Assembly (NCBI GenBank): GCA_038886995.1
Contig: JAWALG010000001.1
Span: 1 to 52,144 of the forward strand
Origin: Candidatus Iainarchaeum sp.
Lineage (GTDB): Archaea; Iainarchaeota; Iainarchaeia; Iainarchaeales; DTGL01
Direction of reading: 5' to 3'
DNA length: 52,144 nt
Made by a program: the position numbers and the translations under genes. The notes below the pieces were generated by a model, which worked only from the letters and a program-made list of their open reading frames with translations, was not told the DNA's origin and ran no database searches. Positions 7,394 to 44,603 of the stretch are shown here, one piece after another. Position 1 is the stretch's first letter. Every line of letters begins with the position of its first letter.

Positions 7394-8056
7394 ATGAACG
7401 AGCCAGAAGGGTTTGATTTGCATCAAAAAGCGCTTTTTATAATTGCACTTGTATTGCTGTATCTTTCATTTCTTGGCGGTTTTTTTGGTTTAGCATTATT
7501 TATTTCATTTTTTTGTTGCATTTTCGGGATAGTGGCCTTAGAGAAAAACAAAGTTGGCGATTTAAAGAAAGCTGCTGCCAAGACATTTGGCTTTTTTTCT
7601 AAGTTGGGCAATCCTTTGCTAATGTGCTTTCTTATAGTATTCCTTGTAGGTTTATTTTTTTACTATGCTTTTGGTGCTGAAGTTGAAAATGTTAGCGACA
7701 TTGGTTATAGCAGCAGATCTGTGTTCATTATTCTTTTAACTGCGCCCATTTTAGAAGAAATTGTGTTTAGGTGGTTTATGCTAAACCAAACTAAGAAGTT
7801 TCTTGAGCGCTTAAACTTTAAGCATGCCGCATTAGCTGCTTTGTTGTTTAGTTCTTTTGCCTTTGGCATAGCTCATACTCTTGGTACAGTTTTATCAGTT
7901 AGAGATGTTGGCATTATAATGGCAACATTTCTGGTTGGAATAATAATTGGAAAGCAATTCTTAAAGGAAGGCCTCGTATCTGCCATGTGGCTCCATGGAA
8001 CCTACAACCTAATACTTTTTCTAGCGCTTTACAACTATTTTTGGGTGTCACTATGA
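7394..8056 (+). CDS. CPBP (CAAX/Abi) intramembrane glutamic protease
   Basis: APILEEIVFR, FGIAH and HGTYN motifs; multiple TM helices. Confidence 0.88.
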   Translation: MNEPEGFDLHQKALFIIALVLLYLSFLGGFFGLALFISFFCCIFGIVALEKNKVGDLKKAAAKTFGFFSKLGNPLLMCFLIVFLVGLFFYYAFGAEVENVSDIGYSSRSVFIILLTAPILEEIVFRWFMLNQTKKFLERLNFKHAALAALLFSSFAFGIAHTLGTVLSVRDVGIIMATFLVGIIIGKQFLKEGLVSAMWLHGTYNLILFLALYNYFWVSL

Positions 8057-8997
8057 AGGAAATCCTTGGTTCAGCAGTAATTTTGATTGTTTTTGCTCTC
8101 TTCTTTTTCTACTTCTTTCACATTTTACTCTATGTTGCACCTTTTGAGGAACTTTCAAAAGGCGTTGGCTTAACGCTTTCATCAGAGGATTTAAACATTA
8201 TTAAGGAATGCGGACTTTTGCTTTTTGACGCAAACGAACTGAGCTGTAATAAAAAAGTATTTATTGGTGAAGGGCGAATTTCGTGCGATTTATACTTTTA
8301 CAATGATGACGCAAACTTTAATATAATTTTTGAGATTACAAAAACTTTGTCAAATGGTAAGAGTTCAATAAAAGATTGCAACGCTGACTTGATTCTGGAA
8401 AAAGGCAAGGATGAGAACTGCGGCATACGCGTATTAATGCATGGGGAAGTCAGCCTTTCAGGTGATGGAAAATCCCGTTTTGTGACACAAACAGAGTGCG
8501 AAAAAAAATACCGCAGAAGATTAGATTTAAACAGCTTGGAGTGTGAACCATACTTTGAAACAATTAAGAGCATTAATCACCTTAAAGACAAAAATACTGA
8601 ATATTTGGTTTTGGGCGAGATTCCATTGGGTGTGGGTGGCGCTAAATTAACAAGCATAAGTTTTAACAAAAAGGAGACAAACACAGCATATCTTAGCTAT
8701 ACAGATTTCCAGCTTTATGAAGGTGCTGCACATAAGAACTTCCTAAAGGTTTCTGGCTTGAGCAGAGAAAGCCTTGAAGGTATCCGTATCAAAAAAATAG
8801 AAGACTGGAATTGCACTAACGAAGAAATTCCAAAATGCTGTTCAAATGGTGTTTGCGTTTATCATACAGGCATAATATCATTCTTTGTTGAAAGCCCTTT
8901 CAACCCAAACACGCGTGTTGACTTCCAATATGATGCCAATGAAGAAAAAAAGCTTGAATTTGTCAAAGCTTTTGCAGTAAAATTAGGCAAAAAATAA
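8053..8997 (+). CDS. Membrane-anchored Cys-rich extracellular protein, D-x-N rich
   Basis: ATGA overlap with the upstream stop, N-terminal TM helix, multiple Cys, 9 D-x-N tripeptides. Confidence 0.75.
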   Translation: MKEILGSAVILIVFALFFFYFFHILLYVAPFEELSKGVGLTLSSEDLNIIKECGLLLFDANELSCNKKVFIGEGRISCDLYFYNDDANFNIIFEITKTLSNGKSSIKDCNADLILEKGKDENCGIRVLMHGEVSLSGDGKSRFVTQTECEKKYRRRLDLNSLECEPYFETIKSINHLKDKNTEYLVLGEIPLGVGGAKLTSISFNKKETNTAYLSYTDFQLYEGAAHKNFLKVSGLSRESLEGIRIKKIEDWNCTNEEIPKCCSNGVCVYHTGIISFFVESPFNPNTRVDFQYDANEEKKLEFVKAFAVKLGKK

Positions 8998-9000
8998 TTT

Positions 9001-10320
9001 TCATTTTATGCGTGCTTTTCCAATTTTGGTTTGCTTGTTGATCTTGTCCATAACTAATTTGGCTTTTATATCCTCAGCCCCATCTAATATTTCTTGAACA
9101 TCTTCGGCCTTTTCCTTTGGCAATAAGAAAGAAACCTCTTTTTCATCGAAGCCGAACAAGGCAGTCAATGCGGCCGCACGGGCTTTATCAGAAAAAAGGA
9201 GCATTATTAGTGGAAGCTCGTTTTGGGAAACGCTTTTTGCAGATTCATTTATTAGCAAAGAAATCTTCTTGCATATGCTTCTCTTTATGGCTCTTTGTTC
9301 AGCACTTTTGCTCAGTTCATTTATAACCTTCGGAAACTGATATTTAACCCACCCATGGTATTCCTTGCTTCGGCTTAAGACAGCACAAGAAGTGGAAAGT
9401 TCTGAGACATAGCGCTTAAGCCCAAAATACTGCCTTTTCAGTATGCGGCCTTCAAAAACATCTGCTAGTGAAACATAGTTTAGTGATTTTGCTGTGTCAG
9501 CAGAATCATACTGCAATGGAATGTTCTCGGCAACCCAGGCAGTAAGTAATTCATCATCAACATCTGATTGTGCCCTTGCCTTTTGAACATCTTTAAATGT
9601 CTTTGCGCGCATTATCATTGCAAGGACATTAAATATGTTCTGTTCCCTTTCTCTGTAGCTCAAATGCTTCACAGCATCAATAGTAATTCCACCTGCAAAG
9701 GATAGGGTCTGCAGGTCAAGGATTGCTGCTCTTACATCTCCAGAAGATTCTTTTGCCAAAAGTTCAATTGCTGCTTCTTCAAATACAAGATTCTCTGCTG
9801 TACAAATCTTTTTTAGCAATGAGAATATTTGCGTATGCATAACCCGGTCCATCTTTATTATTTCACAGCTAGCCCTGATTGGGAGAAGCTTTTTGTTTTC
9901 GTAAATATCATTTGCTGTTAATATAATGGGGTTCATTGAACTCTTGATTAGCTTCGCTATGGCTTCGGCACCACCTTTATCCTGCGGTTGCAAACCATCT
10001 ATCTCATCAAGAAGGATGAGGCGCAATGAGCCAAAAAGCGAGGCGCCTTGTGCAGCATTACCTGCAAATTTTTCTATCAAATCCTTTGTGCGGAAATCGC
10101 TGGCATTCATTTCAAATAGCTGCCAGCCCATTTCTTTCGCGCAAAGATGAGCAAGCGTTGTTTTTCCATTACCTACGGGGCCGTGCAATAGAATTGGTTT
10201 TTGCGGCTTTCCATTTTGCCATGAGTTGGCCCATTCTTTGACCCTCAACACTGCTTGCCCATTTCCTATAAAATCAGGCCATTTTTCAGGAGCATACTTT
10301 TCAGTCCATAGTTCTGACAT
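9001..10320 (-). CDS. rfcL: Replication factor C large subunit
   Basis: WTEKYAP, GPVGNGKTT, EMNASD, LLDEIDG, GDVRAAILDLQ. Confidence 0.95.
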   Translation of the reverse strand: MSELWTEKYAPEKWPDFIGNGQAVLRVKEWANSWQNGKPQKPILLHGPVGNGKTTLAHLCAKEMGWQLFEMNASDFRTKDLIEKFAGNAAQGASLFGSLRLILLDEIDGLQPQDKGGAEAIAKLIKSSMNPIILTANDIYENKKLLPIRASCEIIKMDRVMHTQIFSLLKKICTAENLVFEEAAIELLAKESSGDVRAAILDLQTLSFAGGITIDAVKHLSYREREQNIFNVLAMIMRAKTFKDVQKARAQSDVDDELLTAWVAENIPLQYDSADTAKSLNYVSLADVFEGRILKRQYFGLKRYVSELSTSCAVLSRSKEYHGWVKYQFPKVINELSKSAEQRAIKRSICKKISLLINESAKSVSQNELPLIMLLFSDKARAAALTALFGFDEKEVSFLLPKEKAEDVQEILDGAEDIKAKLVMDKINKQTKIGKARIK

Positions 10321-10359
10321 TAAAATAGTATTGTTGAAAAAGGTTAAATTAGTTCTTGT

Positions 10360-14179: not shown

Positions 14180-14923
14180 TTAATCACCTTTAATTCTCTT
14201 TAGGTAAATGAAAGCAAATACCACAAGCAATGCCACTGCTATGAAAACATATGGCAGTATACCTAAGCCTTGCTCATCCTTTCGCCCAATAGGTGATGTA
14301 CTTGTTGTTTCTTGCATAGTTGGGGTTGCCTTTGGCGGAATTTTCAAGCAGTCAGAGTCAACACCGATGAGACAATCAGGATCACAAACGCCATCATTAT
14401 GAGCAACACAAACGCCATCTTTCTCATTTGGCTTGCAGTCAGAGCAAGATATTGTGCTTTCCTCCTTGTCGCATATTCCATTCCTGTTGCATAGGCGCTC
14501 TTTTATGTCAAATACGATTTCCTTATTGATGTCAAAAACAATTCTAATTTTAGCAGCGTCTTCAAAGTATGGCAAGAATATTTGCTTTATTGTATCATTA
14601 GGATATATAACTCCAGTTCCAGCATTTGCGTTATAGTTAATATCGGCTCTCGGTGGGCTAACAACAAGTATTGGCTCTATAAAACCGAACCTTCCTTTGT
14701 AAAGCTCTTGCCCATCTCCGGCAAGAAGAAACAAGGTGGCATTGCCTGGAAACTCTTCAACACTAACATAACCATAAATTGCCTTTATTTCCACCAATTC
14801 AACATTCAAAAAATTTATGTCATAGTAAATCGAGGCACTTATTACTTTTGTTTCATCTGAATACGCCCCAGCAAGAAAAAAAGCGAGTAAGATAAAAATA
14901 AGCAAGGTTGTTTTCGTTACCAT
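14180..14923 (-). CDS. Secreted surface protein with Cys/Asp-rich module and C-terminal membrane anchor
   Basis: Signal peptide; CNRNGICD..SCSDC..DGVC..DGVCDPDC..DSDC; Thr/Pro linker; C-terminal TM with basic tail. Confidence 0.8.
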   Translation of the reverse strand: MVTKTTLLIFILLAFFLAGAYSDETKVISASIYYDINFLNVELVEIKAIYGYVSVEEFPGNATLFLLAGDGQELYKGRFGFIEPILVVSPPRADINYNANAGTGVIYPNDTIKQIFLPYFEDAAKIRIVFDINKEIVFDIKERLCNRNGICDKEESTISCSDCKPNEKDGVCVAHNDGVCDPDCLIGVDSDCLKIPPKATPTMQETTSTSPIGRKDEQGLGILPYVFIAVALLVVFAFIYLKRIKGD

Positions 14924-14995: not shown

Positions 14996-15418
14996 TCAGT
15001 TTGAGATTATTATGCTGTTTAGGTCATCTGAACACGAAAGTTCAACTATTGCCGGAAAAACCAATGGCTCATTCTTTATAATTATGTTGCAGTCCTCGCA
15101 TACTTTGTTCTTTTTAAAGTATGCTTTTAGCGCATTTAGGTCAAATGTTTCGCCAGTAATCTTTTCGGTTTTTACATTATACACACCGCAATTTGCATCT
15201 CTGGCGCCAAAAGCACACGATTTCCAGCATTTTGACATTTCAATGAAAAACTGCTGGTATTGAATGTCATTCATAGGTCCTTTGCAACTATCAGGTATGA
15301 AAAGGCATGTAATTGATTTTTGAAGCCCGCTGAAGTCAATGCCCACTATAAAAGCTAACACCACCATGCCAACCGCAAACGCAAAAATAAAGAATATCAC
15401 CACTTCTATTGCCTGCAT
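14996..15418 (-). CDS. Pilin-like protein without a basic leader
   Basis: AGGTG then MQAIEVVIFFIFAFAVG; Cys-rich C-terminus. The longer track ORF overlaps the 30-aa ORF. Confidence 0.7.
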   Translation of the reverse strand: MQAIEVVIFFIFAFAVGMVVLAFIVGIDFSGLQKSITCLFIPDSCKGPMNDIQYQQFFIEMSKCWKSCAFGARDANCGVYNVKTEKITGETFDLNALKAYFKKNKVCEDCNIIIKNEPLVFPAIVELSCSDDLNSIIISN

Positions 15419-15426
15419 ACAAACAC

Positions 15427-15519
15427 CTACTTCAATGCTGAGTAAACATACATTAAGATAAGGCCGACTACGGCAAGGCCAACTATAACTTCTATGATCT
15501 GCCAAGTTGTTTTGCTCAT
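15427..15519 (-). CDS. Unannotated 30-aa single-helix (mini-pilin-like) peptide
   Basis: MSKTTWQIIEVIVGLAVVGLILMYVYSALK*. ATGA-coupled to the tadC-like stop; its own stop overlaps the next RBS. Confidence 0.7.
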   Translation of the reverse strand: MSKTTWQIIEVIVGLAVVGLILMYVYSALK

Positions 15520-17408
15520 CTTGTCAACACCCCCTCAAATATGAATGTTGTAAACATCATAACTCCGATGAAGAAAAGCGCGCTGAATATTAAGAAGCCA
15601 GCAAGAAGGTTGCTGAAAATGGTTTTACCTATCTTGTAACGGTCAGTCCCATATTTAACATTCGCTAGGAATAAACTCAGGACTACTATTGTTAGTATAA
15701 GATATATGCCAACGATAACCAAAACTACAGTTGGCGGTATTATCTGGGAAATTTCTACAAGCTGCAAAGAAAGTTGTATCCCGAAAGCTTTACCAACCCC
15801 CTCAATAAGACCAATTATATACTCTAAAGACATCACTATTGCCACAGCCATTATTATGGCTGTTGCTGCAAGTATTGGTGCTAATATTTTGCCTGAAAGT
15901 TCAATGGTTGCACTTGTATCACTTAAAAGCGTCTGCATGTAATTGTCAAGCCTAAAGACGGAAAGCGTGTGACTCCTTATCATCTTTGCCGCTTTTGCAG
16001 CATTCCTTATATCTGTTTCCGAAAAGTGTATCAAGCGCCTAAATATCTGTATAAGGCGCTTTGAGGCAACTATTTCGGGTAGCTTAGTATCAACAAAGTC
16101 CGCAAGTGTCTTTTTTGTGTTATAAAGAGCATCAGTTATTTCGCCAAATATCTTAACTACAGCATGTCTCTTAAAGCCATGTCTAATGTAATCTTCCTTA
16201 ACATCTTCGATTATACTTTCCATTGGCCTGTTAAGCACAAGGTAACTGCTTACAACCTGAAGAAGATGTGGTATATCATCTTCAACCTCGCGCATCTCAA
16301 GCCATATTTTTTCATTAAGTTTAACATAGAATAACAAGTAAACTTCTATTGCTAAGAACATGCCAAAAGGCACGCACCACGCTGCAATTAAGCTACCAAG
16401 TGAGTATTGCTTTACAATATCCTCTCTTGAACTCATGTTTAGGCCTAAAAATTGAATAAGACCAAACCCACAAATGAGTACCGCAATACTTGCACATATT
16501 ACATATACTGCTGGCGGCATCTTCTTGAATTTTGGTGAAAGAGATAAGTCGATTGTGTTAACCTGCACCCTATTTAGCGCAAAGTTCATGGCAAAAAGCA
16601 AGAGCAATGCTGGACAAAGAATATCGTAAATAAATATCAGCATTGGCACATTAACCATGTTTGGGAGAAATATTGAAATCATTGGCAAAAGTATGAGTGA
16701 CATCATTGGCAACATAACTCCAACAGAAACTAAATTTTTTGCCTGGTTTGAAAGAGTTTCAGTTGTTCTTTTTCCCATTGTATAGTAGCCCTGCATTATT
16801 GTCTTTATGCCCTCTTTTAGCATATTGTCCCTTTCGCTGAGAGGCGCCAAGCTTGCTGTTTGCAGGATAGTAAGACCTTTTACGAAATCAGGATTTATTT
16901 CCATCCATATTGGGATATAATCCTCAAAGGCATCGCCGAGAGTGGCATATTGCTGGAGCTCCATTTTGGCAACAATATCCCTAAACTGTTTACCTAAAAC
17001 ACCCGTAAGGCCTTTTGAAGTTTCTGTAAAAGCAAATTCTATGCTTGTGTTCAAGCTTATGTAATTAGCCATTTCAAGCAAGGCTTGAAGCATCTCTTCT
17101 TTTTGCTGCATTATACCTTGGGTATAGTAGATGCTTGCACCGTAGAGATAAGAGGATATTGCTAGAAGGGCTGATGTAAAAATAAAGATATAGCCAAAAA
17201 GCTCAAATAGCCAAAGCTTTGCGGCAGCACCAACAATAAAAAAGAATATCCCTGCAAAAGCAGGCAATATAAACCATATGAATATCCCTGAGAGGAACTC
17301 CGCTGAACTATATGGAAACTCAACCTGTTTGAATTTTTTTTCGAGGGAAGGCGATTTTGGAAAAATTTTTATTGTCTTGCCAGTATTGTAAACAAAATCA
17401 AAATACAT
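15516..17408 (-). CDS. TadC/PilC/ArlJ-like platform protein with two T2SS-F-like domains (system 1)
   Basis: Two repeats of TM pair + soluble domain + TM cluster (EMLQALLEMANY.. and DDIPHLLQVVSSY..); directly downstream of the secretion ATPase. Confidence 0.8.
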   Translation of the reverse strand: MYFDFVYNTGKTIKIFPKSPSLEKKFKQVEFPYSSAEFLSGIFIWFILPAFAGIFFFIVGAAAKLWLFELFGYIFIFTSALLAISSYLYGASIYYTQGIMQQKEEMLQALLEMANYISLNTSIEFAFTETSKGLTGVLGKQFRDIVAKMELQQYATLGDAFEDYIPIWMEINPDFVKGLTILQTASLAPLSERDNMLKEGIKTIMQGYYTMGKRTTETLSNQAKNLVSVGVMLPMMSLILLPMISIFLPNMVNVPMLIFIYDILCPALLLLFAMNFALNRVQVNTIDLSLSPKFKKMPPAVYVICASIAVLICGFGLIQFLGLNMSSREDIVKQYSLGSLIAAWCVPFGMFLAIEVYLLFYVKLNEKIWLEMREVEDDIPHLLQVVSSYLVLNRPMESIIEDVKEDYIRHGFKRHAVVKIFGEITDALYNTKKTLADFVDTKLPEIVASKRLIQIFRRLIHFSETDIRNAAKAAKMIRSHTLSVFRLDNYMQTLLSDTSATIELSGKILAPILAATAIIMAVAIVMSLEYIIGLIEGVGKAFGIQLSLQLVEISQIIPPTVVLVIVGIYLILTIVVLSLFLANVKYGTDRYKIGKTIFSNLLAGFLIFSALFFIGVMMFTTFIFEGVLTR

Positions 17409-17431
17409 TTCAAATCATCCTAAAACATAAC

Positions 17432-19674: not shown

Positions 19675-19685
19675 CTTAACACACT

Positions 19686-20315: not shown

Positions 20316-20450
20316 AAAAATCCCTATTCTTATTCTTAGTGTTTGCCTATATATAAATGTTTTCATAGCGGCTAAAGGCCAAATACCTGGTTCAGTAAAA
20401 GATAAATTTAAATATAAAAATGGTAATATGTATAAGCAAGAGGCGAAAAA

Positions 20451-21406: not shown

Positions 21407-21426
21407 AAAATCAGCGGTAGGGAAAA

Positions 21427-21837: not shown

Positions 21838-21841
21838 GCAA

Positions 21842-33082: not shown

Positions 33083-33637
33083 GTGGTTTTGGTGGCAAAA
33101 AAGATCGACTTTGCTTCAATAGCCGAGGACCAAATAACCCTTTTCATAGTGCCAGCCAAGGACTATGTTGAGGTTGACAATGAGCTTCTTCATTATTTCA
33201 TAAATGTTAAGAAGATGGGCTGCATATATGTTGCTGCAAACAAACCGGCACAGCTTGTAAATAAAATACTAGAGAATGCAAAGGTAAACACTGAAAAGAT
33301 ATGGTACATTGATTGTGTCTCAGGAAGGGTTTCTTCGCCACACAGGATTGAAAAAGTTATTTTTCTTGAAACACCGAGGGACCTAACAAACATGAGCATT
33401 GCAATAACAAATTTTGTAAAGAACATGCCTGAAAAAAGCAAGATGCTTTTCATAGACAGCTTGACAACGCTAACAATCCATAACGACATAAACACTATTG
33501 CTAAGTTTACCCATTTCATAATAAACCAAGCAAGGAACTGGGGCGTATCAATGGCCCTGATATCAATTGAAGAAGAGGCAGAAGCAGAGCTTATAAACAA
33601 GATATCCATAATTGTGGATAAAGTTGTAAAGCTTTAA
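33083..33637 (+). CDS. Inactivated KaiC/RecA-fold protein (DUF835-like)
   Basis: CIYVAAN, WYIDCVS, LFIDSLTTL and IVDKVV strands of the RecA/KaiC fold; no Walker A. Confidence 0.7.
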   Translation: MVLVAKKIDFASIAEDQITLFIVPAKDYVEVDNELLHYFINVKKMGCIYVAANKPAQLVNKILENAKVNTEKIWYIDCVSGRVSSPHRIEKVIFLETPRDLTNMSIAITNFVKNMPEKSKMLFIDSLTTLTIHNDINTIAKFTHFIINQARNWGVSMALISIEEEAEAELINKISIIVDKVVKL

Positions 33638-34686: not shown

Positions 34687-35573
34687 GTCAAAAACACCTT
34701 CGGAACTCGGCTTTTAACAAAGCCGATTATTGATAGCTGTATTGCAAATGAAAGCACTACTATAAATAAAATTGTTGCAGGACCTATTGATGCACCTGCA
34801 AGTGAAGAAAGTATGACGATAAATGTAATGCCTAAGCTTGGTATGGCTGCTGCAAAAAGCATATACATCAAAACCCACACATTGAGTTCTGCGGAATAAT
34901 CCCTTATAGCCCTTTCTTGCTCTTTCACAAGCATTGCTACAATTGACTGCAAAGCACCTTTAACAGAGGCACCGCTTCTTATGGCGCTCAGCAACTGCCA
35001 GCAGGTCTTTTTTAGATGCTCAGAGCTTGTCTTTATTGCCATCTTTTCAAGGGCTTTTGCTTCTGATTCGCCAGCATTTATCTCCTTTACAACATACTCA
35101 AATTCTTCCGAAACACCAGCATAGCCTGACTTAGCAACATAAACTAAGGTATTGTAGAGGCTTATGCCAGAGCAAACCTGGACATACATTGATTTTACCG
35201 CAAAGAGGAGGTTATTATCTATGGTCCTTGCTCGGTTATTCGCTATTATGCGCGGATAAAAAACATGCAACAGAAAGAACACAACGCCAAATATTAGACC
35301 AAAGAAAAGTGCACTAACAAGTACTGAAGCATCAAATTGCAGGGATCTTAAAAATAAAAGCGTAGCAAACAAGGCAAAAAAAAGCGCAAAGTATGCAAGC
35401 GCTGAAAAAAAAGCAGCAGTAAGGTATTTTTCTGGGTCAATTTTTATGCCAGCTAGGTGCAAATCATATTTAAGCGGATAGAATAAGTCACTCAGCTTTT
35501 CACCAATCCAAAGAAAACGCCTATTGATCCTGTTTGCGCGTTCAATTGAGAAAAGCATGAACTTTACGCGCAT
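34683..35573 (-). CDS. TadB/C-like (T2SS-F) platform protein, system 2
   Basis: SGISLY, YAGVSEEF..INAGESE..AL, AIRSGA. Confidence 0.88.
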   Translation of the reverse strand: MRVKFMLFSIERANRINRRFLWIGEKLSDLFYPLKYDLHLAGIKIDPEKYLTAAFFSALAYFALFFALFATLLFLRSLQFDASVLVSALFFGLIFGVVFFLLHVFYPRIIANNRARTIDNNLLFAVKSMYVQVCSGISLYNTLVYVAKSGYAGVSEEFEYVVKEINAGESEAKALEKMAIKTSSEHLKKTCWQLLSAIRSGASVKGALQSIVAMLVKEQERAIRDYSAELNVWVLMYMLFAAAIPSLGITFIVILSSLAGASIGPATILFIVVLSFAIQLSIIGFVKSRVPKVFLT

Positions 35574-35574
35574 C

Positions 35575-37482
35575 TTATGCCTCCAAAAACATTGCTGGCT
35601 TTTTATTCTGCTTTGCTGCCTCTAAAACCTCATCTGGATTGGCGTAAAATGCCTTCATTATGCTGCCAACCTGGTTTATATCGCTTACGTTGTTGTTAAG
35701 CATCCACTCTATGATGTGGGCCCTACCATCAAGGTCTTCGGCAATTTCCTGTTCAGTGAGGCCTGTGTGCAGATTAATGTTCCCAACAAGCTTAGTTGGC
35801 TTGTTGAGCATATCCCACTTATCAGTCCTTGGAGACCATTTGAATACAGTGTTTATTCGCAACTGTGCTCCTGTTGTTCCTGTCTCAATCTCGCAGATTT
35901 CATAGCTACGCCTTCTGTTCGTTTTCCTATCCCTGTACTGCACTAGTATGAGATCAAGACCTTCAACCTCTAGCGGAGGCAATGATATTGGTGGCTCCAG
36001 CAGGCGTCTTAAAACCTGTTGGCCTGAGTTTGCGTGCAGCGTACTGTATACGCTGTGGCCTGTGTGCAACGCTTCAAACAATACCTCTGCTTCTTTCTTC
36101 TTTCTTATCTCACCAAGGATTATTCTGTCAGGCCTCATCCTAAGTGAAGCATGCATAAGGTCAAGCATTTTAACCTCGCCAAGGCCTTCAGGGTTTGGGT
36201 TCCTTGTTGTCATTGGCACCCAGTTCCACTGAAGGTGGCTTGGAAGCATTATTTCGCGCACATCTTCTATTGAAATGATTCTGTGGTAGGGTGGCATGAA
36301 AACGCACAAGGCATTTAGCATTGCGGTTTTTCCTGAAGCCGTGCCGCCTGCAACAAGCATGCTCATTTCGTATTGCATTGCAAGCCAGAGCAAAGAGGCC
36401 ATCTCTATGCTAAGCGTATGCCTTACGCCAATTAAATCAACAATTGTCCAAGGCCTTCTTGCAAAGCGCCTTATTGTTAAGGTGTTTCCAAAGGAAGATA
36501 TTGGGAATAGAGAGGCATGGACCCTGTCGCCAGTAATTATGTGGGCATCGAGCAGCGGATTGAGCGTTGTTATCTCTCTGCCAACTTTCCTTGCAATTTG
36601 TGAAGCATAGTTTGCTATTGCATCCTCAGAAAGAGGCATTATATTTGTTCTCATCCAGCCGTATTCCTTGTGGTAAACAGTAATGTGCGTTTTAGAGGAA
36701 TTTATTGCTACTTCTTCAAGGTCATTATCACCCATTATTAGTTCAATTATGCCAAGGCCATACATTTCATGTAGAAGCAGCCCTGCAAGGATATCCTGAA
36801 GTTTAGGGTCTGAGCCGAAATACTCCTGAAGGACCTTTTTGGCCTCATCAAAGTATCTTCTCTTGAGCTCTTGGCTTTTCTTAGTATCGGTTATTTCTGA
36901 AACCTCAACAGGCACGTGCTCAACAATTTTGTTCTTTATTTCATCAAGGAATATTTTAGTATAAGGCCTAAAGGTTGGCGGAATCAGGTTGTAGTAAAGC
37001 ATTCGGTCCTCTGTGGAGCGAACAATTTCAACACGCACTGGCACATTATCAACTGAATGTTTTTTTTGCTCAACTTTCTTGCCATCAAAAACAAAGAGTT
37101 TTGGTTCTGTAATAAGGGTAAGAAGCACGACCCTCGGGCGCTTGATGACTGTTGTGGGGTAAACAAGCTTTACAACGCTTGACATCTCAAGGATCCTGCC
37201 TATGTTTTCTACGGCATCTATGCTGAGACCAAGCTTGCTAGCGAGCTCATTCAAGGACGCGCTTTTCTTCACCTTGAGTATATCTACTAGAGAGTCAACT
37301 GGCGTAGTTATTGGGTCTCTTAAGTCGTCATAGTCATTTTGCTTTTTCTCTTTTTCTTCAGTTTGGTGCTTTGGGCTATAATAATGCTCTTCTTCCGCAT
37401 TTGGTTCTTCCTTAGGCCTAAGTGGAAGAACAATACTTTGGCCTTCTTCTGAAGCTTTTACTATTTTGCTCTTTTTCTTCAC
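35575..37482 (-). CDS. CpaF/TadA-like secretion ATPase with N-terminal wHTH-like extension, system 2
   Basis: GGTASGKT, ISIEDVRE, LRMRPDRIILGEIR, HTGHSVYSTLHAN. Confidence 0.94.
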   Translation of the reverse strand: MKKKSKIVKASEEGQSIVLPLRPKEEPNAEEEHYYSPKHQTEEKEKKQNDYDDLRDPITTPVDSLVDILKVKKSASLNELASKLGLSIDAVENIGRILEMSSVVKLVYPTTVIKRPRVVLLTLITEPKLFVFDGKKVEQKKHSVDNVPVRVEIVRSTEDRMLYYNLIPPTFRPYTKIFLDEIKNKIVEHVPVEVSEITDTKKSQELKRRYFDEAKKVLQEYFGSDPKLQDILAGLLLHEMYGLGIIELIMGDNDLEEVAINSSKTHITVYHKEYGWMRTNIMPLSEDAIANYASQIARKVGREITTLNPLLDAHIITGDRVHASLFPISSFGNTLTIRRFARRPWTIVDLIGVRHTLSIEMASLLWLAMQYEMSMLVAGGTASGKTAMLNALCVFMPPYHRIISIEDVREIMLPSHLQWNWVPMTTRNPNPEGLGEVKMLDLMHASLRMRPDRIILGEIRKKKEAEVLFEALHTGHSVYSTLHANSGQQVLRRLLEPPISLPPLEVEGLDLILVQYRDRKTNRRRSYEICEIETGTTGAQLRINTVFKWSPRTDKWDMLNKPTKLVGNINLHTGLTEQEIAEDLDGRAHIIEWMLNNNVSDINQVGSIMKAFYANPDEVLEAAKQNKKPAMFLEA

Positions 37483-37526
37483 TTAAAACACCTTTAGTCA
37501 ATATATCTCATACCATATTAATAAAC

Positions 37527-38372
37527 TTATCCGCTGAAAAGCGTAACTTCAGAAGACCATTTCGAGTTGCCCATAGCAATGTTGAGATCGCAAGGCCAAT
37601 ATATTCTGACTGGGTTTGTGGCTTTTATAGAAGCACTAAGGTTTAAGTCCAAATTCCTTTCAGATAAGTTGTTTTGGACTCTTATTGCACCAGTCCCCCC
37701 AGCAATGCTTCCGAAAGAAACATTAATGTCTCCGCTTAAATCCTTGAATTTTATAATGTATTCTTTGTCATCAGAATTTGATGCATTGCAAACAGTTTCA
37801 AGAGGAAGTCCGCTGGCATCTCTCAACCTCAAAATAATCTTTGTAGTGCCCAGGTCACAGCTCCACTCAATCGAATTTTCATCATCATAATAACCACCAG
37901 AGAAATAAAGATTTATGTCATAAGAGTAAGCTTCAGTATCAGATGATGGGGCATAAAATAGAACATAGTTTTCATCAATGCTGCGCACGTATCTGATTCC
38001 ATTTGAAAATTGTAGCTCAGTGGAAGGAGTTAAGTTGCACATGGAAATTTTAACATTTCTCTTTTCGGAGTATGGCCCTTCAATGAATCCCTTCCAGGAG
38101 CTTATATTGCTGTGTGAGGTCTTTATTGGAATTGAATCTTGTATTTTTATCTCATAAGAGTTTGCAGAGCTTTCAGCAGATATTCTAAAGCCAAAGACGC
38201 TTTTTGTGTCTTCAGCAATATCTGAAGCAATGTCAGAAACCTTTAATGCAGATGTGCTCTCTAAAATAAGCTTTTGTTCTGCCTGGTTTGACCTTAAATA
38301 ATATACTGATGCGATTAGAAGCACTGAAAGCAGTATTGCAACTGAAATCGTAACAACAAAGCCCTTTTTCAA
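37527..38372 (-). CDS. Class III signal peptide minor pilin (cassette B)
   Basis: MKKG|FVVTISVAILLSVLL; 6 D-x-N. Confidence 0.8.
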   Translation of the reverse strand: MKKGFVVTISVAILLSVLLIASVYYLRSNQAEQKLILESTSALKVSDIASDIAEDTKSVFGFRISAESSANSYEIKIQDSIPIKTSHSNISSWKGFIEGPYSEKRNVKISMCNLTPSTELQFSNGIRYVRSIDENYVLFYAPSSDTEAYSYDINLYFSGGYYDDENSIEWSCDLGTTKIILRLRDASGLPLETVCNASNSDDKEYIIKFKDLSGDINVSFGSIAGGTGAIRVQNNLSERNLDLNLSASIKATNPVRIYWPCDLNIAMGNSKWSSEVTLFSG

Positions 38373-38378
38373 AAAAAA

Positions 38379-38792
38379 TCACCTGTACCAGGCAAGTACC
38401 TCTGCAAGGTATGCCTTTCCTGTTTTATTGGAGAAGAAGCTCCTCTTGTATGAGGCCCTCTCAGTATACTTTGAAATGCAGCCAACCTTGTATGTGCTAA
38501 AAAGCACACCGTTGATGTCTTCAGAGCTATAAATCCTGATTTCAAGGCAAAGCCTCCGCGGAGAAACATTAATTATTGTACTAAGCTCAGTCATTTCATT
38601 TTCATCAATTGCTCTTTCGAAATAGCCGCCTTTTTCAAGAGCTGCCCCTATGTCGGAAGCGAAGTCGTAAAGTGCAGCGCTTTGGAAAGCGCTGAAGCTT
38701 ATGCCTGAGAAATAAAATGTAACTATGCCGAGAAGAATCATTAGGACAGTAAGAGAGAACAATGCGTCCATTGAAAGTACAAAGCCCTTCAC
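38379..38792 (-). CDS. Class III signal peptide minor pilin (cassette B)
   Basis: MKG|FVLSMDALFSLTVLMILL. Confidence 0.82.
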   Translation of the reverse strand: MKGFVLSMDALFSLTVLMILLGIVTFYFSGISFSAFQSAALYDFASDIGAALEKGGYFERAIDENEMTELSTIINVSPRRLCLEIRIYSSEDINGVLFSTYKVGCISKYTERASYKRSFFSNKTGKAYLAEVLAWYR

Positions 38793-39310
38793 TCAAAAAC
38801 CCCCACATCCACAAAGACAACAGCATTGTTCAAAAGGCCTGCCCTACTGACCTTTGCAATCGCGGATTCCTGCGTTTCTGAAGCACCAATAGAATAAAGA
38901 GTGCTGCCTGAAGTATCAGTAACCTTAAGCACAATATCGTATTTTTGCAATCCGAGAATTTCTTTTAGAAAAGCATAATTCTCATCAGCAAGCTTTTCAA
39001 AGCGTTTTATTTTTTCTTCTGATAGGACGTTCGGTTCTAAAGCTAGGCCTATTGCCTTGATGTTTTCATCTGGTAGTGTGTGCCAATTACTTGGAATTCC
39101 TTCGGAGACAACAAGCATTTGCGCTGTTCGCCTTGCAGCATATTCTCTGTCTTGAATTAGTTGGGCTTCATTGATGCGCATAGAAGCCAAGTTTGAATAA
39201 CCGTAAACAATTACAAGCGCTGCCACAAACATTGCGGAAGCGAAGATAAAGTCGCTAGTGAAAAGCTGGCCTTTTTCACTGTGCGGCGGCAATTGAAATT
39301 CCTCCGCCAC
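38789..39310 (-). CDS. Class III signal peptide minor pilin (cassette B)
   Basis: EKG|QLFTSDFIFASAMF; SEGIPSNW..IGLA motif. Confidence 0.82.
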   Translation of the reverse strand: MAEEFQLPPHSEKGQLFTSDFIFASAMFVAALVIVYGYSNLASMRINEAQLIQDREYAARRTAQMLVVSEGIPSNWHTLPDENIKAIGLALEPNVLSEEKIKRFEKLADENYAFLKEILGLQKYDIVLKVTDTSGSTLYSIGASETQESAIAKVSRAGLLNNAVVFVDVGVFE

Positions 39311-39668
39311 TGTTTTTTATGAGTAGCTCTTTGCCCTGTACTGCTTGCGGTGCGTTAACATCCGGCGCAATTATAAATTCACTTACATACTGGCCTTGCC
39401 ATTCAACGAAAACCCTGTTCTTAGCAAAAGATATGTTGTAGTCGCCAAAACTCCTGAGAAAAAGTGATTTTTCCGTGCCATTGCCGCCAAGATAAACTGC
39501 ATTTATTTCAGATGCAAGTGTCCTTGCAAGAAGCTTTGCTTCCTGGGTCTTTTTAGATTGCATAAAAACATCGTGCTGGCCTGATGCAACCGAAAGCGAA
39601 AAAACAAAAATCAATAAAAAAAAGGAAAGAAGAACCATAAATTCAACAGACGCCTGAGCTTTTTGCAA
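39276..39668 (-). CDS. Class III signal peptide minor pilin (cassette B)
   Basis: MQKA|QASVEFMVLLSFFLLIF; GGTGA RBS. Confidence 0.85.
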   Translation of the reverse strand: MQKAQASVEFMVLLSFFLLIFVFSLSVASGQHDVFMQSKKTQEAKLLARTLASEINAVYLGGNGTEKSLFLRSFGDYNISFAKNRVFVEWQGQYVSEFIIAPDVNAPQAVQGKELLIKNSGGGISIAAAQ

Positions 39669-39689
39669 AAGGTCACCTTAAATATTTTA

Positions 39690-41867
39690 TCAGCCACATT
39701 TGTAGTCGATAGGCCATGGTGGCGTTGTCAATATGCTCCCATCCGAAAACATAAAGTGAATTGTAAACACGTCGTTTGAATTTATAGTGCCATCAAAAGT
39801 GATTTTTGATGTTTGAGACCTTATGACTTCTCCAGACTCTATTACAAATCCACCCCCATCTTTTATTGGGAACCACGCTCCAGGTGGTGCTTTGCCATTT
39901 TTCAAAACACCATTCTCATCAAAGTACTTTTTACCGTCATATATCGTTACTTGGTTTTTTATAAAAAAACTCACAGATGCTACTTTAGCATTACTGTTAA
40001 AATCTACTTTCATTCTTATTAGATTTAGATCTACTGGATAACTGTTCCAAAAAGTCCACCATTCGAGACCGCCACTGCTGCTTATACAAGCTGGCGACCA
40101 TGAGAAGTTTAACATGTCAGCGTATGTTGCAATCTTTATGCTCAAATTAGAGTCATCAATGTTTGCATTGCTCTGGCCTGTGATATTAGCATTAAATTGG
40201 CCCGTTGCATTTTTGTTTGCGTCAACCCTGACTGTTATAAGATTGCAGTCGCCACCTTGCAAAACACCTAAGCTTGAAGGTTCTAATGAAATGGAGATCA
40301 AATTGTTTGGATCATTAAATACTTGGTAGGAAAAGTTTGCATACTGAAGCGGACTGAAGCCGGTGTTGCAAGCAAAAATCTCAAGCTCTTGCGCGGAATC
40401 TGGAAGCATAGTGAATATTGTAACCTGCTGCCTTTCTGGGAAAAGCGATAGGAAGCCGTTTTTGTCTGGCAGTGACAGAGTCCTTATTGAAATCCTTGAT
40501 GTGTCAGAGTTTATGCTGCTTAGGCCTTCGATAAGGCCATTGTAGTCGCCATTTGCATCTTGTGGTACGCTTATTGTTATTTTTACAGGTTCACAGGCTC
40601 CTCTCTGAAGAGGCGCAATGTTTGTTGGGCTTATTGAAACCCAGTCATTTGCGTCGCGCTCCATTGAGCGCAAAAGGTTAACATCATCAAGGTCTTTAAG
40701 CCCTAAGTTGCAAGCATAGATATTGACATCCTCAGTAGAGCCCTTAAATATTGAAAGTGGATAATAGTCCGGGAAAAGGTACAGTTCGCCATCTTCTTCT
40801 GGTAAGGTAAGAACCTTTATAATAAGCACAGATGAGTCACTGTTAACACTGCTATTGCCATAAACTGTGCCAGTATAAATGCCATTTGCATCATTTGGAA
40901 CAGCCATGGTTACTTTAACAGGCATACAACTTTCTCTCACCAGGGGGGTAATATTTGAGGGGCTAAGTGATATCCAACTGTTTGCGTTGCGGTCCATTGA
41001 AATGGAAAGGGTCACACTATTTAGGTCTTCCATGCCAACATTACATGCGTAAAAATTGATGTCTTGCGTAGAGCCAGCCAATATTGATATAGGGTATTGT
41101 TCAGGGTAAAGTTCAAGCCAAGCTTTCTTTATTATTGTAGCGGAAACTTCTATTGTTACAGGCACAAATATCTCGTGTGTTTGGTTTGGGGTTATTGCAG
41201 TAAAAACTAATGATCCGGGATAAGCGCCTGCTGCAAACGCATCCGAATAGAAGTTTATGTCAAGTGTCTTTGAGCTACCTGGCTCAAGTTCAAAAGATGA
41301 GGTGTTTATATCAAAGTTTGCGTGCGTATGGCTCCAATTCTTAACTAAAGAAACCTGCGCTTTGCCATCGCCATCATTGTATATTGTGATTGTTTCCTGC
41401 TTGTCGCCACCTCTGGAAATATGCACAAAAAGTGATGTCTTGTCAAGGTAGATTTCCTCAAGGCCGAAAACAACATAGCCCTCCTTTGCCTCAACCCATA
41501 CGCGGTGCTCTCCTGGCTTCAGAGGTATTGTGCCTACTAAGTTAGCATCTCCTTTGGCATAGATATCACTGCCGGCAACATTGAACACTATGCTTGTACC
41601 TTCAATGCCGCTTTTGCTTGGGTCAATTGCGCTTGGCACTGAAAAGAAAACCCTTTTTCGTGCACCTTCGCCTTGCCTATAAACATCATTTGCCGCGTTT
41701 ATAAGGTCATTGACACTTGTAAGCGCAATCTGCTGTTGTCTCTCGAGCTGAATCTCGGATAATGAAGTGTTAGAGTATGCAATTATGGCTATAAGAATAA
41801 CAAGGCCAACTGCAAGGATAACCATAACCTCAACTGAGCTTTGGCCTTTTGAACTTTTTGAAAACAT
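39690..41867 (-). CDS. Large pilin/adhesin with tandem Ig-like repeats
   Basis: SKG|QSSVEVMVILAVGLVIL; three roughly 111-aa repeats (L.LxP..ACNxG..SP..C..V..DANG); 20 D-x-N. Confidence 0.85.
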   Translation of the reverse strand: MFSKSSKGQSSVEVMVILAVGLVILIAIIAYSNTSLSEIQLERQQQIALTSVNDLINAANDVYRQGEGARKRVFFSVPSAIDPSKSGIEGTSIVFNVAGSDIYAKGDANLVGTIPLKPGEHRVWVEAKEGYVVFGLEEIYLDKTSLFVHISRGGDKQETITIYNDGDGKAQVSLVKNWSHTHANFDINTSSFELEPGSSKTLDINFYSDAFAAGAYPGSLVFTAITPNQTHEIFVPVTIEVSATIIKKAWLELYPEQYPISILAGSTQDINFYACNVGMEDLNSVTLSISMDRNANSWISLSPSNITPLVRESCMPVKVTMAVPNDANGIYTGTVYGNSSVNSDSSVLIIKVLTLPEEDGELYLFPDYYPLSIFKGSTEDVNIYACNLGLKDLDDVNLLRSMERDANDWVSISPTNIAPLQRGACEPVKITISVPQDANGDYNGLIEGLSSINSDTSRISIRTLSLPDKNGFLSLFPERQQVTIFTMLPDSAQELEIFACNTGFSPLQYANFSYQVFNDPNNLISISLEPSSLGVLQGGDCNLITVRVDANKNATGQFNANITGQSNANIDDSNLSIKIATYADMLNFSWSPACISSSGGLEWWTFWNSYPVDLNLIRMKVDFNSNAKVASVSFFIKNQVTIYDGKKYFDENGVLKNGKAPPGAWFPIKDGGGFVIESGEVIRSQTSKITFDGTINSNDVFTIHFMFSDGSILTTPPWPIDYKCG

Positions 41868-41931
41868 ACTTAACACTATTATTATAACAATAGGAAGTTA
41901 TTAATAATAACGATTATTGCAAATAGCCAAC

Positions 41932-42882
41932 TTAGAAAATCTCAACATCTGGGTAGACCTTTATTCCGTTTGCTTCAAAGTCCAATGCAAGAACCTTATT
42001 TGTGTGCCTTGTGCCGCGCATCTTCAATATTTCGCAACAATGAACTCTAGGCCCTTTTTCGCCTTCTTTTCTGTAATACAAAGCAATAATTGCATCTGAA
42101 AGGAAGCCAAGCGAATCTGCCTTTGTCAGATGCGTGTCAGCAGGTGTTTCAGAAATTACAATGGTTGTGGTCCCCCATTTATGCAACAGATCAAAAAATT
42201 CAAGTATGCTTTGCCTTTTCACATATTCATCATGGAACAAAAGCGCATATGAAGTTATTGAATCAACAACAAGGCGTTTGGCACCAATTTCATTTATTGC
42301 ATCCTTTATTGGGCCACCACCCTCCTTCATCAGTTTTTCAACCTGGTGCGGCCTATACTCCAAAACTCTCAAAAGATTCTTCTGCTCCAAAGCCCTAAAA
42401 TCCCAACCAAAAACAAGCGCATGCCTATAAAGTGACTCCTTGTCTTCTTCAAAGGTTATGTAAATGCCTGGCTCTTTGCTTACAGTAATGCCATAGTACA
42501 AAAACTGAAGTGCAAATATTGTCTTGCCTGTGCCTGGCGCACCAACAAAAAGCACTACTGAACCTTTTTCAAAGCCACCCTCAATTAGCTCATCAAATGA
42601 CTCAACACCCGTGGAAACCCTTTCTATAACTTTTTGCGCTGGCTTATTCTCTGGAATTTTTATTTCACCTAACTGCTGTGCGCTCTTGCCTAATATAACA
42701 TTATCAAACTTTCGTGCTTGCTGAACCTGCTGTGCTGCTTCCTGCTTGGCCTCTTTTTTTGCAAGGTCTTCTGGCTTTATCTCTTGAAGCATCTCTTCCT
42801 TTTTTGAGCCCTCTTGCTTGTGTTCAGCACCAAAGGATTGAAATATTTTGCCAATGCCTTCTTTCTCTTGTTTTTCTGGCAT
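41932..42882 (-). CDS. KaiC/RAD55-family ATPase
   Basis: RVSTGVESFDELIEGG, GAPGTGKT, YITFEE, RLVVDSIT, KMRGT; low-complexity N-terminus. Confidence 0.92.
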   Translation of the reverse strand: MPEKQEKEGIGKIFQSFGAEHKQEGSKKEEMLQEIKPEDLAKKEAKQEAAQQVQQARKFDNVILGKSAQQLGEIKIPENKPAQKVIERVSTGVESFDELIEGGFEKGSVVLFVGAPGTGKTIFALQFLYYGITVSKEPGIYITFEEDKESLYRHALVFGWDFRALEQKNLLRVLEYRPHQVEKLMKEGGGPIKDAINEIGAKRLVVDSITSYALLFHDEYVKRQSILEFFDLLHKWGTTTIVISETPADTHLTKADSLGFLSDAIIALYYRKEGEKGPRVHCCEILKMRGTRHTNKVLALDFEANGIKVYPDVEIF

Positions 42883-42979: not shown

Positions 42980-42990
42980 CTCTGTAAATC

Positions 42991-43527: not shown

Positions 43528-43634
43528 AACATCACCAATATGATATAATAGTACATTAATAACAGTTATAAATGTTATTTTTTTACATATCAATTCGATG
43601 AATTGCTTTATATGGGTTAGTTAATAATATATAC

Positions 43635-43754
43635 GCAAAACCAAAAGGAGGGTTGTTGCAAGAACCAAAGTCGGTTAGAGGGATGGGGCAGCTCACCAGG
43701 CTAAAATGGTTTCTGAAGAGGCCCCTTCTTCCTCTAATACTTTTTCTAATATAA
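43635..43754 (+). ncRNA. Candidate structured small RNA (alternatively a 32-aa sORF at 43656-43754)
   Basis: TTTATA box at about 43607; long hairpin at 43675-43737 followed by a T-tract. Confidence 0.4.
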
Positions 43755-43763
43755 GTGGCCAGT

Positions 43764-44603
43764 TTAGCAGTTATTCAAGTCGCTATATAGTTGTTTTATC
43801 TCATTGAGCAGAGAAACCACGCTTGAATGTAAATCGTAAAGACCCCCAGTGTCTGTGCCAAGGGATTCTAGTTCATCTATTAGCTTTTCAGATTCTGAAA
43901 CAAGTGATTCCGCACCTTTTATTTTATCATAAAGGTCAGCCATGTTATTGCAATCTATTCTTTCAAAATCAATACCCTGAAAAAAGGCCTTTGATTTTTG
44001 GTAAAGAAGGCATGCTTCACCAATTACTGCCCTGGCCTTTGCTTTATTTGCCAATATACTAAAGCCGGTTTCATCCAAAAGCAATGAGTTGACATTGAAC
44101 TCTTTTGCTTTTTCAGGATACTTCAAAGAAAAAGATTTGATGCTGCTGTTGTTCTTCGCAGCTTCTTCCTTGAGAATTTTGAGTTTATCCGCAAGACCTG
44201 AAAATGATTTAAAGTAAGTGCATTCTGTAGGAGATGCTTTACTTATCTCGATAGAAACACTCTGTTTGAGCATCACAGAGTTGTTTGAGCTAAAGATATC
44301 TATCTTTTTAATCAAAAATTCTGCAAAGTTGAAATGCAGTGACCAATATTCTTTCATCATGCCAGAGCTTTTATCACGTAAGGATTCGGCCTTTTTCAAA
44401 ACAGATTTAACCTCTAAGAGAATTTTTTCTTTTGCCATGTTATTAATGTCAATTTCATGTGGACTCTTGAGTTTTTCCAAATCAACGCCTTGCCAAATGT
44501 CTGCTGGCTTGTCTTCAGTTTGGACACAGCCAGCGATAAAAAAAGAAAACAACAAAAGCATTAGGAGTATAAAAGTGGATTTATGCCTAAAGCGAAAGCT
44601 CAT
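43764..44603 (-). CDS. Predicted lipoprotein, helical
   Basis: Basic N-region, hydrophobic core, IAGC lipobox; coupled to topA. Confidence 0.75.
   Translation of the reverse strand: MSFRFRHKSTFILLMLLLFSFFIAGCVQTEDKPADIWQGVDLEKLKSPHEIDINNMAKEKILLEVKSVLKKAESLRDKSSGMMKEYWSLHFNFAEFLIKKIDIFSSNNSVMLKQSVSIEISKASPTECTYFKSFSGLADKLKILKEEAAKNNSSIKSFSLKYPEKAKEFNVNSLLLDETGFSILANKAKARAVIGEACLLYQKSKAFFQGIDFERIDCNNMADLYDKIKGAESLVSESEKLIDELESLGTDTGGLYDLHSSVVSLLNEIKQLYSDLNNC

Follow-up and report, generated by a model that had tools for sequence, protein, structure and literature searches.

N-x-S/T is treated as the universal sequon of N-glycosylation, and WWD as a motif characteristic of oligosaccharyltransferases without exception. 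In the passages of PMC7226087 that treat acceptor binding, the Asp of WWD and a Trp hydrogen-bond the hydroxyl of the Ser/Thr at +2, the Lys of the DK motif (K586 in yeast, equivalent to I572 of PglB) adds contacts to the same residue, and R331 of PglB, 12 residues past the catalytic Glu, binds an Asp at -2, where yeast has Asp362. Pro at +1 is described as forbidden in the canonical sequon (PMC8342417). For archaea, the available text of a 2024 review describes WWDXG as typical of AglB and variable at its fourth position alone (PMC11407970), and that of a 2010 review states that archaea use the simple N-x-S/T and not the extended bacterial motif, listing the Asn-2 site of Halobacterium as an unexplained variation (PMC2952790). 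Natural PglB variants with a relaxed requirement at -2 have been described (Ollis et al., 2015, PMC4894442), a change in the opposite direction to the one considered here. We analyse an excess of the motif D-x-N in the exported proteins of Candidatus Iainarchaeum sp., of the Iainarchaeota (DPANN archaea), together with the AglB of the same genome. The excess came to light in a window of 52,144 nucleotides (contig JAWALG010000001.1 of assembly GCA_038886995.1, here contig C1), where the initial annotation had noted it in extracellular proteins and had proposed either an oligosaccharyltransferase that reads D-x-N without a hydroxyl residue or some other surface modification, such as Ca binding or cross-linking. 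The full-text literature, with subscription journals and supplements outside the scope of the search, returned no report of a D-x-N sequon, of an AglB without the WWD Asp, or of glycosylation in Iainarchaeota.

An excess of D-x-N in exported proteins

The genome (G000; an 866-kb assembly of 38 contigs, 88.6% complete) was represented by 872 open reading frames (ORFs) from our own caller, which uses a codon-usage score and gives 90.6% coding sequence. Compartments were assigned by a Kyte-Doolittle hydrophobicity rule rather than by a trained predictor, and both gene calls and compartments are correspondingly crude: 154 proteins have a single N-terminal helix, whether or not a C-terminal anchor follows (the exported class), 567 have no helix (the cytoplasmic class), 127 have several helices and 24 are of other kinds. 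Expected counts come from the composition of each protein itself, and figures are written observed/expected.

D-x-N occurs 2.74 times as often as expected in the exported class (389/141.9, z 20.7), at expectation in the cytoplasmic class (287/276.7, 1.04) and at an intermediate level in multi-helix proteins (86/48.0, 1.79). In the exported class it ranks first of about 400 x-spaced residue pairs, the runner-up being T-x-T with a z of 6.6; E-x-N (146/180.4) and the reverse order N-x-D (119/141.9) are not enriched there, N-x-S/T barely so (446/400.0; N-x-S 263/227.6, N-x-T 183/172.3), and other spacings of the same two residues are flat, at 0.75-1.10 for Asp before Asn (D-N, D-xx-N and wider) and 0.84-1.04 for Asn before Asp. 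The excess survives composition-preserving shuffling: when the mature part of each protein was shuffled within itself 500 times, the mean count was 142.5 (standard deviation 11.2) and the maximum 175, against 387 observed. The motif lies past the membrane helix (387/143.2, versus 2/2.4 up to the helix end), and under a charge-bias rule for topology, also crude, it is in excess in proteins whose C-terminus is predicted outside (211/74.7; predicted inside, 8/5.1). The window behaves as the genome does, with 73/14.3 in its 20 N-terminal-helix proteins and 12/14.7 in its 25 cytoplasmic ones.

The excess is also broad. Of the 105 exported proteins of at least 150 amino acids (aa), 73 exceed their expected count, and density over the class is 0.73 per 100 aa, or about one site per 137 residues, close to the 0.80 of N-x-S/T. 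The 154 exported proteins form 142 BLAST clusters; taking one representative of each leaves 319/114.2, and the 136 singletons give 268/97.1. The initial annotation had held that the signal spans unrelated folds and is not explained by repeats; the proteins are indeed not one sequence family, whereas the unrelatedness of their folds could not be confirmed, and 8 of 10 D-x-N-rich proteins scanned against Pfam matched no family. Because both Asp codons and both Asn codons occur in the motif, D-x-N is not a DNA word, and because Sec-type and lipoprotein-like as well as pilin-like N-termini are found among its carriers, it is not peculiar to pilins. We regard it as confirmed that the excess is real and confined to exported proteins, and that it has its source neither in paralogy nor in composition or codon bias.

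Some proteins and residues stand apart from this pattern. Three large exported proteins have no D-x-N excess (C19:6204-8462, 752 aa, 0/1.5; C5:32234-34930, 898 aa, 1/2.7; C11:24966-27473, 835 aa, 2/3.2) and may be recent acquisitions. C-x-D is enriched in both exported (91/57.0) and multi-helix proteins (27/11.9), and Cys is the middle residue of D-x-N 19 times, against 8 expected; a sub-motif D-C-N or C-x-D-x-N may exist.

An AglB altered in its WWD and DK-like motifs

A scan of the genome found two STT3 (PF02516) genes. One, C7:38035-40404, outside the window, encodes a 789-aa AglB that is the sole clear AglB of the genome: it scores 33.9 bits against the Pfam STT3 model (cut-off 24.5; 52.9 bits in the genome scan) and 22.4 bits, below the cut-off of 27, against the AglB core domain, and a profile of its orthologues matches human STT3A at E 1.2e-28 and A. 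fulgidus AglB at 9e-27. FEFD116 of the first external loop aligns with EFD of STT3A, FE235-D-D237, the second metal motif, aligns with YDNE, and T-V-G-E439 supplies a putative TIXE-like Glu in a stretch outside the solved-structure alignments; D116, G438, E439, the two Trp of WWx and G592-H593 are invariant in 26 orthologues. Since dN/dS (the ratio of nonsynonymous to synonymous substitution rates) between this genome and its relative G002 is 0.064 and the catalytic residues are invariant, the gene is not decaying but under purifying selection.

The motifs that would bind the +2 residue are another matter. WWDXG is not kept, WWGSG of the G000 enzyme aligning with WWDYG of STT3A. About 64 residues downstream, relatives with WWD carry D-x-x-x-K/R-x-x-S-L/M, in which the column resembling the DK Lys is K/R in 57 of 62 WWD loci and Gly in the group of G000; this column was assigned from spacing (64 residues after WW, versus 70 in STT3A), pattern and co-variation, and not from a structure. 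With the WWD Asp and the DK Lys both lost, both halves of the +2 Ser/Thr pocket are gone from the G000 enzyme. Altered WWD and DK motifs, which the initial annotation had named as marks of such an enzyme, are thus present (WWGSG, and Lys to Gly in the DK-like column); a basic residue like R331 of PglB that tracks the D-x-N trait, which it had also named, was not found among the AglB orthologues. By position in the sequence, the residue 12 places past E439, the spacing of R331, is Tyr451, and Lys450 at +11 is invariant in the 26 orthologues. A search of solved structures with residues 400-520 gave only spurious matches to MsbA, and the profile alignments to solved structures spanned neither that stretch nor the DK stretch.

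A few AglB columns separate trait-positive from trait-negative genomes in part, namely a basic residue at G000 position 664 (9 of 12 versus 0 of 10), Gln557 (11 of 12 versus 2 of 10) and a basic residue at 149 (8 of 12 versus 0 of 10); no such column holds across every genome, phylogeny confounds each of them, and we draw no claim from them. The second STT3 gene, C19:14012-15586, encodes a PMT_2-like GT-C enzyme that we considered and rejected as the reader of D-x-N: its distribution does not match the trait, with clear orthologues (E < 1e-70) in G002, G004, G008 and G009 only and weaker matches (1e-6 to 1e-11) in 10 more genomes. The gene content of G000, with two Glycos_transf_4 and at least six GT2 genes, makes a pathway for a lipid-linked glycan plausible.

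AglB motifs and D-x-N across the order

Of the 41 genomes of the order, 39, G000 among them, have an AglB orthologue. The third residue of WWx is Gly in G000, G002, G004 and, independently, G022; Ser in G001, G003, G005-G012 and G026; Asn in G013, G018, G021 and G036; and Asp in the other 17 AglB ORFs read. Of the 34 AglB ORFs counted from relatives, 16 carry WWG, WWS or WWN. Loss of the WWD Asp and loss of the DK Lys go together in every set examined. Among 78 loci (those of 80 named loci with a readable ORF), 57 have WWD with K/R and 5 have WWD without it, and the 16 non-WWD loci all lack K/R. Among 120 representatives (those readable of 153 proteins, comprising the best 150 representatives of 50%-identity clusters from a HMMER search and three others), the corresponding counts are 66, 20 and 34, with no non-WWD protein retaining K/R. 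A tree was built of 31 AglB sequences, omitting those of G005, G012 and G021, which fall below 600 aa. On it the WWD and Lys states each change six times or more; four independent pairs on supported branches were concordant 3.8 times on average over 200 pairings and never opposite, a test that is not significant because there are too few pairs. Exported proteins flanking AglB in the 78 loci, when pooled, differ in the expected direction, though with low power (D-x-N 20/10.7 at non-WWD loci, 69/58.5 at WWD loci with K/R).

To follow the motif itself, 23-224 kb from each of 23 related genomes passed through the identical pipeline, which with G000 gives 24 genomes; a 31-kb sample of G026 held no usable N-terminal-helix protein and stands outside all D-x-N counts. 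Where the WWD Asp is missing, D-x-N ratios in exported proteins are 2.74 in G000, 3.30 in G002, 2.51 in G004, 1.58 in G022, 2.37 in G003, 3.61 in G011, 1.91 in G008, 1.75 in G001, 2.30 in G013, 1.93 in G021, 3.0 in G036 (8/2.7, from a tiny 23-kb sample) and 1.66 in G007 (z 2.0); where WWD is kept, they include 1.15 in G014, 0.94 in G016, 0.90 in G035, 0.88 in G028, 0.61 in G027, 0.44 in G023 and 0.42 in G037, and the exceptions on both sides are taken up below. Overall, 11 of 14 genomes without the Asp (G000 included) reach z >= 3, against 2 of 10 with it, and the summed counts without G000 are 435/217.7 and 145/125.7, respectively. Cytoplasmic ratios range from 0.61 to 1.54 across the samples, the highest being that of the 23-kb G036 sample. 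D-x-N ranks first of more than 1,000 spaced pairs in G000, G002, G004, G003, G011, G013, G020 and G025, and between 546th and 1232nd in G016, G023, G028, G035 and G037. Set against related secretomes, then, D-x-N is in excess in some lineages and shows none in nine related genomes; the excess is a trait of some lineages and not general to archaeal surface proteins.

Genomes without enriched D-x-N tend to have an excess of N-x-S/T (1.36 in G027, 1.41 in G028, 1.49 in G037, 1.44 in G014), and N-x-S/T is near 1.0 where D-x-N is enriched (0.98 in G002, 0.96 in G003, 0.98 in G008, 1.01 in G011). In eight genomes the D-x-N excess stays broad when the two top proteins are dropped (G000 2.53, G002 2.41, G004 1.56, G022 1.46, G013 1.66, G003 1.59, G011 1.80, G020 1.83), and the broadest and strongest signals occur in two independent WWG lineages.

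Several features of these AglB genes were noted in passing. In G013, G020, G034 and G036 the second metal motif reads Y/F-E-(A/G/P)-(G/A/T/S)-(T/S) in place of F-E-D/E-D, so that the last acidic ligand is gone, and all four genomes show some D-x-N excess (2.30, 2.45, 1.81 and 3.0). Both members of genus g2 (G007 and G009) lack the WWD Asp and the DK Lys and have no D-x-N excess between them (combined 23/29.0); the top pairs in G007 are T-x-T, P-xxx-P and T-P, as in Thr/Pro-rich linkers, and the AglB of these two genomes may read something else. Six-frame matches to AglB contain in-frame stops in G040 (five TAA), G032 (two TAA), G034 and G015 (one TAA each), G017 (one TGA) and G030 (one TAG); full-length AglB ORFs of 699-763 aa are nonetheless present in G040, G032 and G034, and the stops may come from matches that run over into a different frame, and not from recoding or pseudogenes. 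Contigs carrying loci L190, L193, L195, L232 and L251 are titled Thaumarchaeota, Chloroflexi/Chloroflexota or "bacterium" and encode an AglB 36% identical (33% for L232) to the Iainarchaeota query; they are probably mis-binned or mislabelled.

Sequence context and turnover of the sites

D-x-N has no strong or long flanking consensus. When the exported proteins of 10 trait-positive genomes are pooled (746 sites against 295.4 expected, with the background share subtracted), the excess sites prefer hydrophobic residues at -1, +1 and +3 and disfavour Asp and His at -1, Pro, Gln, Asp and Glu at +1, Lys at +2, and Pro and Gly at +3. Compared with other Asn in the same proteins, Pro at +1 is rare (15 of 746 versus 250 of 4560, p 1e-5) and so is Lys at +2 (22 of 746 versus 319 of 4560, p 8e-6), two comparisons picked post hoc that would both survive correction for roughly 140 comparisons; Arg at +2 is unchanged and Pro is not depleted there. 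Ser or Thr follows at +2 in 59 of 389 D-x-N sites of G000 (0.15), against 387 of 2390 other Asn (0.16), and over the 10 genomes the figures are 0.097 versus 0.095 for Ser and 0.071 versus 0.070 for Thr. The footprint of the motif spans -2 to about +3, and Ser/Thr at +2 plays no part in it.

Individual sites turn over. In G002, the closest relative, the Asn of D-x-N is kept more often than other Asn (0.78 versus 0.67), and in farther relatives it fares no better than they do (0.44 versus 0.56 in G004, 0.17 versus 0.34 in G007, and 0 of 12 in G018). Density held while positions drift is the behaviour of glycosylation sites, and not of structural or metal-binding residues. No Asn was seen to switch between D-x-N and N-x-S/T in orthologues from trait-negative genomes, among the few aligned sites available (0 of 12 in G027, 0 of 9 in G035).

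D-x-N-rich proteins of the window

The window's surface proteins are collected in Table 1, and two clusters, at 14996-22222 and 33634-42882, house many of the D-x-N-rich genes. ORF translation reproduced the hand counts made at annotation (20, 9, 8, 6 and 4 sites in five surface ORFs, none in the cytoplasmic control and one in the ORF at 44600-46684), and the remark that, among the 20 sites of the largest pilin-like protein, only DINTS and DSNLS have S/T at +2 was upheld. That protein has a Pfam match to an immunoglobulin (Ig)-like family (PF22544, 37.5 bits).

Table 1. Proteins of the 52,144-nucleotide window and their D-x-N counts (observed/expected where both are given)
Feature	Positions	Strand	D-x-N	Remarks
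314-aa protein, N-terminal helix	8053-8997	+	9/1.0	no Pfam family
407-aa protein, N-terminal helix	10802-12025	-	8/1.3	no Pfam family
723-aa protein, N-terminal helix	12016-14187	-	6/2.0	
247-aa protein, signal-peptide-like N-terminus	14180-14923	-	3/0.9	
Small pilin-like protein, longest ORF 169 aa	14996-15505	-	4/0.5	N-x-S/T 0
Four short pilin-like proteins, N-terminal helix	20451-22222	+	1, 1, 1, 3	N-x-S/T 0 in all
724-aa cytoplasmic protein	28554-30728	-	0/1.2	internal control; earlier label Cdc48 unchecked
281-aa protein, N-terminal helix	37527-38372	-	6/1.1	no Pfam family
Three small N-terminal-helix proteins (137, 173, 130 aa)	38379-39668	-	2 each, vs 0.1-0.3 expected	
Secreted pilin-like protein with Ig-like modules, 728 aa from GTG start	39690-41876	-	20/3.3	S/T at +2 in 2 of 20 sites
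279-aa lipoprotein-like protein	43764-44603	-	3/0.9	
ORF	44600-46684	-	1	

What reads D-x-N

At roughly even odds (about 0.5), we take D-x-N to be the N-glycosylation sequon of this Iainarchaeota lineage, read at -2 without a hydroxyl at +2. Exported proteins would meet a single STT3-family AglB on the outer face of the membrane; this enzyme would act with its catalytic residues kept and without the WWD Asp and the DK-like Lys, the pair that binds the +2 hydroxyl in every characterised enzyme, and would draw its binding energy from the Asp at -2, the position read by Arg331 in bacterial PglB. Selection for a glycan coat would then maintain about one D-x-N per 137 residues of surface protein while single sites come and go. 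Recognition of the -2 Asp may have arisen first, beside an intact +2 pocket, which then decayed where D-x-N took over. The corresponding evolutionary account, to which we give slightly less than even odds, is that a clade of Iainarchaeota shifted acceptor recognition from the +2 hydroxyl to the -2 carboxylate, with a sequon of D-x-N that excludes Pro at +1 and Lys at +2 and with intermediates surviving in relatives such as G020 and G025.

A number of results weigh against this proposal. We infer from comparison of sequences that AglB would be the reader, that the Asn would carry a glycan and that some residue of the enzyme would contact the Asp; what was seen directly is the excess, its limits of lineage and compartment, and the AglB changes with their co-variation. 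A residue reading the -2 Asp was not found in the AglB comparison, and Lys450 alone cannot explain the trait because it is invariant in trait-positive and trait-negative genomes alike; a PF01943 flippase was not found in the 88.6% complete genome. The idea of an oligosaccharyltransferase that needs no hydroxyl gains from the loss of both pocket elements, but the link between enzyme and motif is correlative and imperfect. Two genomes without the WWD Asp or the Lys have no D-x-N excess (G018 1.01, 9/8.9; G009 0.40, 8/19.9), and two with both intact have one (G020 2.45, 29/11.9; G025 2.40, 22/9.2), as does G034 more weakly (1.81, 19/10.5, z 2.6); with exceptions both ways, loss of the +2 pocket is neither necessary nor sufficient for the excess. 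The trait changes at least six times on the AglB tree, and of three independent pairs comparing it with AglB state, 1.5 were concordant, 0.2 opposite and 1.3 without difference, which is not significant. When the two top proteins are dropped, the excess is gone in G008 (0.68), G021 (0.74), G034 (0.95) and also G007, and is weak in G025 (1.30) and G001 (1.14). In multi-helix proteins the comparison of outside loops (27/15.6) with inside loops (29/22.2) goes in the expected direction, but this topology test is weak and its rule crude. Finally, the hydrophobic periodicity of the flanks suggests that many sites lie in beta strands, and the exclusion of Pro is the weaker as an enzyme signature because strand context alone could deplete it.

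That last point leads to a different explanation, in which no enzyme reads the motif and D-x-N is a structural or biophysical feature of beta-rich surface proteins: Asp and Asn would lie next to each other where a strand is exposed, a pairing favoured for stability, solubility or edge-strand protection in the environment of this lineage. Hydrophobic residues at -1, +1 and +3 with Pro and Gly avoided at +3 make an alternating-face strand pattern, large surface proteins are common among those rich in D-x-N, one of which has Ig-like domains, and in several relatives the excess sits in few proteins. We nevertheless consider this unlikely, as the cytoplasmic proteins of G000 also have strands and show no excess, nor do the exported proteins of nine genomes of the same order. 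A structural motif should hold its positions from one orthologue to the next, and these sites do not; Glu cannot stand in for Asp, and Asn before Asp shows no excess; and the flanks exclude Lys but not Arg at +2 and leave Pro undepleted there. It is more improbable, in our judgement, that another extracytoplasmic system reads D-x-N (an Asn- or Asp-modifying enzyme, an isopeptide-type cross-link assisted by the Asp, or a binding partner) and that the AglB losses are a separate event. Such a system would account for an excess in two to three genomes with canonical AglB motifs and its absence in two without them, as well as for the exclusion of Lys at +2, which has no obvious explanation in terms of an oligosaccharyltransferase. 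However, no candidate for it was found, the only other GT-C enzyme, the PMT_2-like protein, does not fit the trait, and some 250 excess sites per genome, with up to 28 in one protein, are many for cross-links. Among archaeal enzymes, AglB alone is known to recognise a short motif around Asn in exported proteins, which also counts against a different reader.

Asp and Asn are common Ca ligands, and Ca binding, one of the alternatives in the initial annotation, would place D-x-N in loops of the DxDxDG, DxNxD or EF-hand kind; a few sites do read D-x-N-G. The surroundings of the motif speak clearly against this, with Asp depleted at -3, -1 and +1, no enrichment of Asp at +2 or of Gly at +3, hydrophobic flanks, acidic residues depleted beside the motif and no D/N/G-rich loop context, and we find Ca loops a very improbable source of the excess. 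Genes and compartments came from a home-made caller, and on that ground one might suspect that the excess is an artefact, whether of composition, repeats or paralogues, of the gene calls, or of a motif in the DNA itself; given the distance between the shuffled maximum and the observed count, the excess in singletons, the flat neighbouring spacings, the use of both codons of each residue and the cytoplasmic genes of the same DNA, which show nothing, the chance of this is practically negligible.

If D-x-N is the sequon of an AglB without a +2 pocket, this would be the first natural STT3-family enzyme without a requirement at +2, and the sequon itself would be something that can evolve. The change would be readable from the proteome, as a surplus of about 250 D-x-N spread over about 150 exported proteins; the glycosylation sites of a whole archaeal phylum would currently be mispredicted; and glyco-engineering would gain a catalyst with an orthogonal and shorter tag. 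Even if AglB is not the reader, a three-residue motif with a z of about 20, in exported proteins only and in some lineages, points to a surface modification that has yet to be described.

Comparison with known systems

Archaeal N-glycosylation without a Ser at +2 would have a precedent in Halobacterium salinarum, where Zeitler and colleagues in 1998 reportedly found Asn-2 of the S-layer protein still glycosylated when its +2 Ser was replaced. That case concerns one site in one protein, with no -2 Asp rule or proteome-wide signature reported there. So far as the sources cited above describe it, PglB of Campylobacter (D/E-X-N-X-S/T) shares with the system proposed here an STT3-family enzyme, an acidic residue at -2, a footprint from -2 to +2 and a dislike of Pro at +1. 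Unlike the PglB sequon, D-x-N carries no need for S/T at +2 (15% of sites, versus 16% of other Asn) and does not accept Glu for Asp, and the enzyme of G000 is an archaeal AglB without the WWD Asp, in which an equivalent of R331 is not assigned. With canonical AglB and STT3, which read N-X-S/T, the G000 enzyme is homologous; it keeps the catalytic Asp and the E-x-D motif, has a putative TIXE-like Glu, and would likewise act on exported proteins. It differs in its WWGSG, in the Gly of its DK-like column and in a secretome in which N-x-S/T is barely enriched, whereas relatives within the same order that retain WWD and the Lys (G027, G028, G037 and G014) have N-x-S/T at 1.36-1.49 times expectation and no excess of D-x-N.

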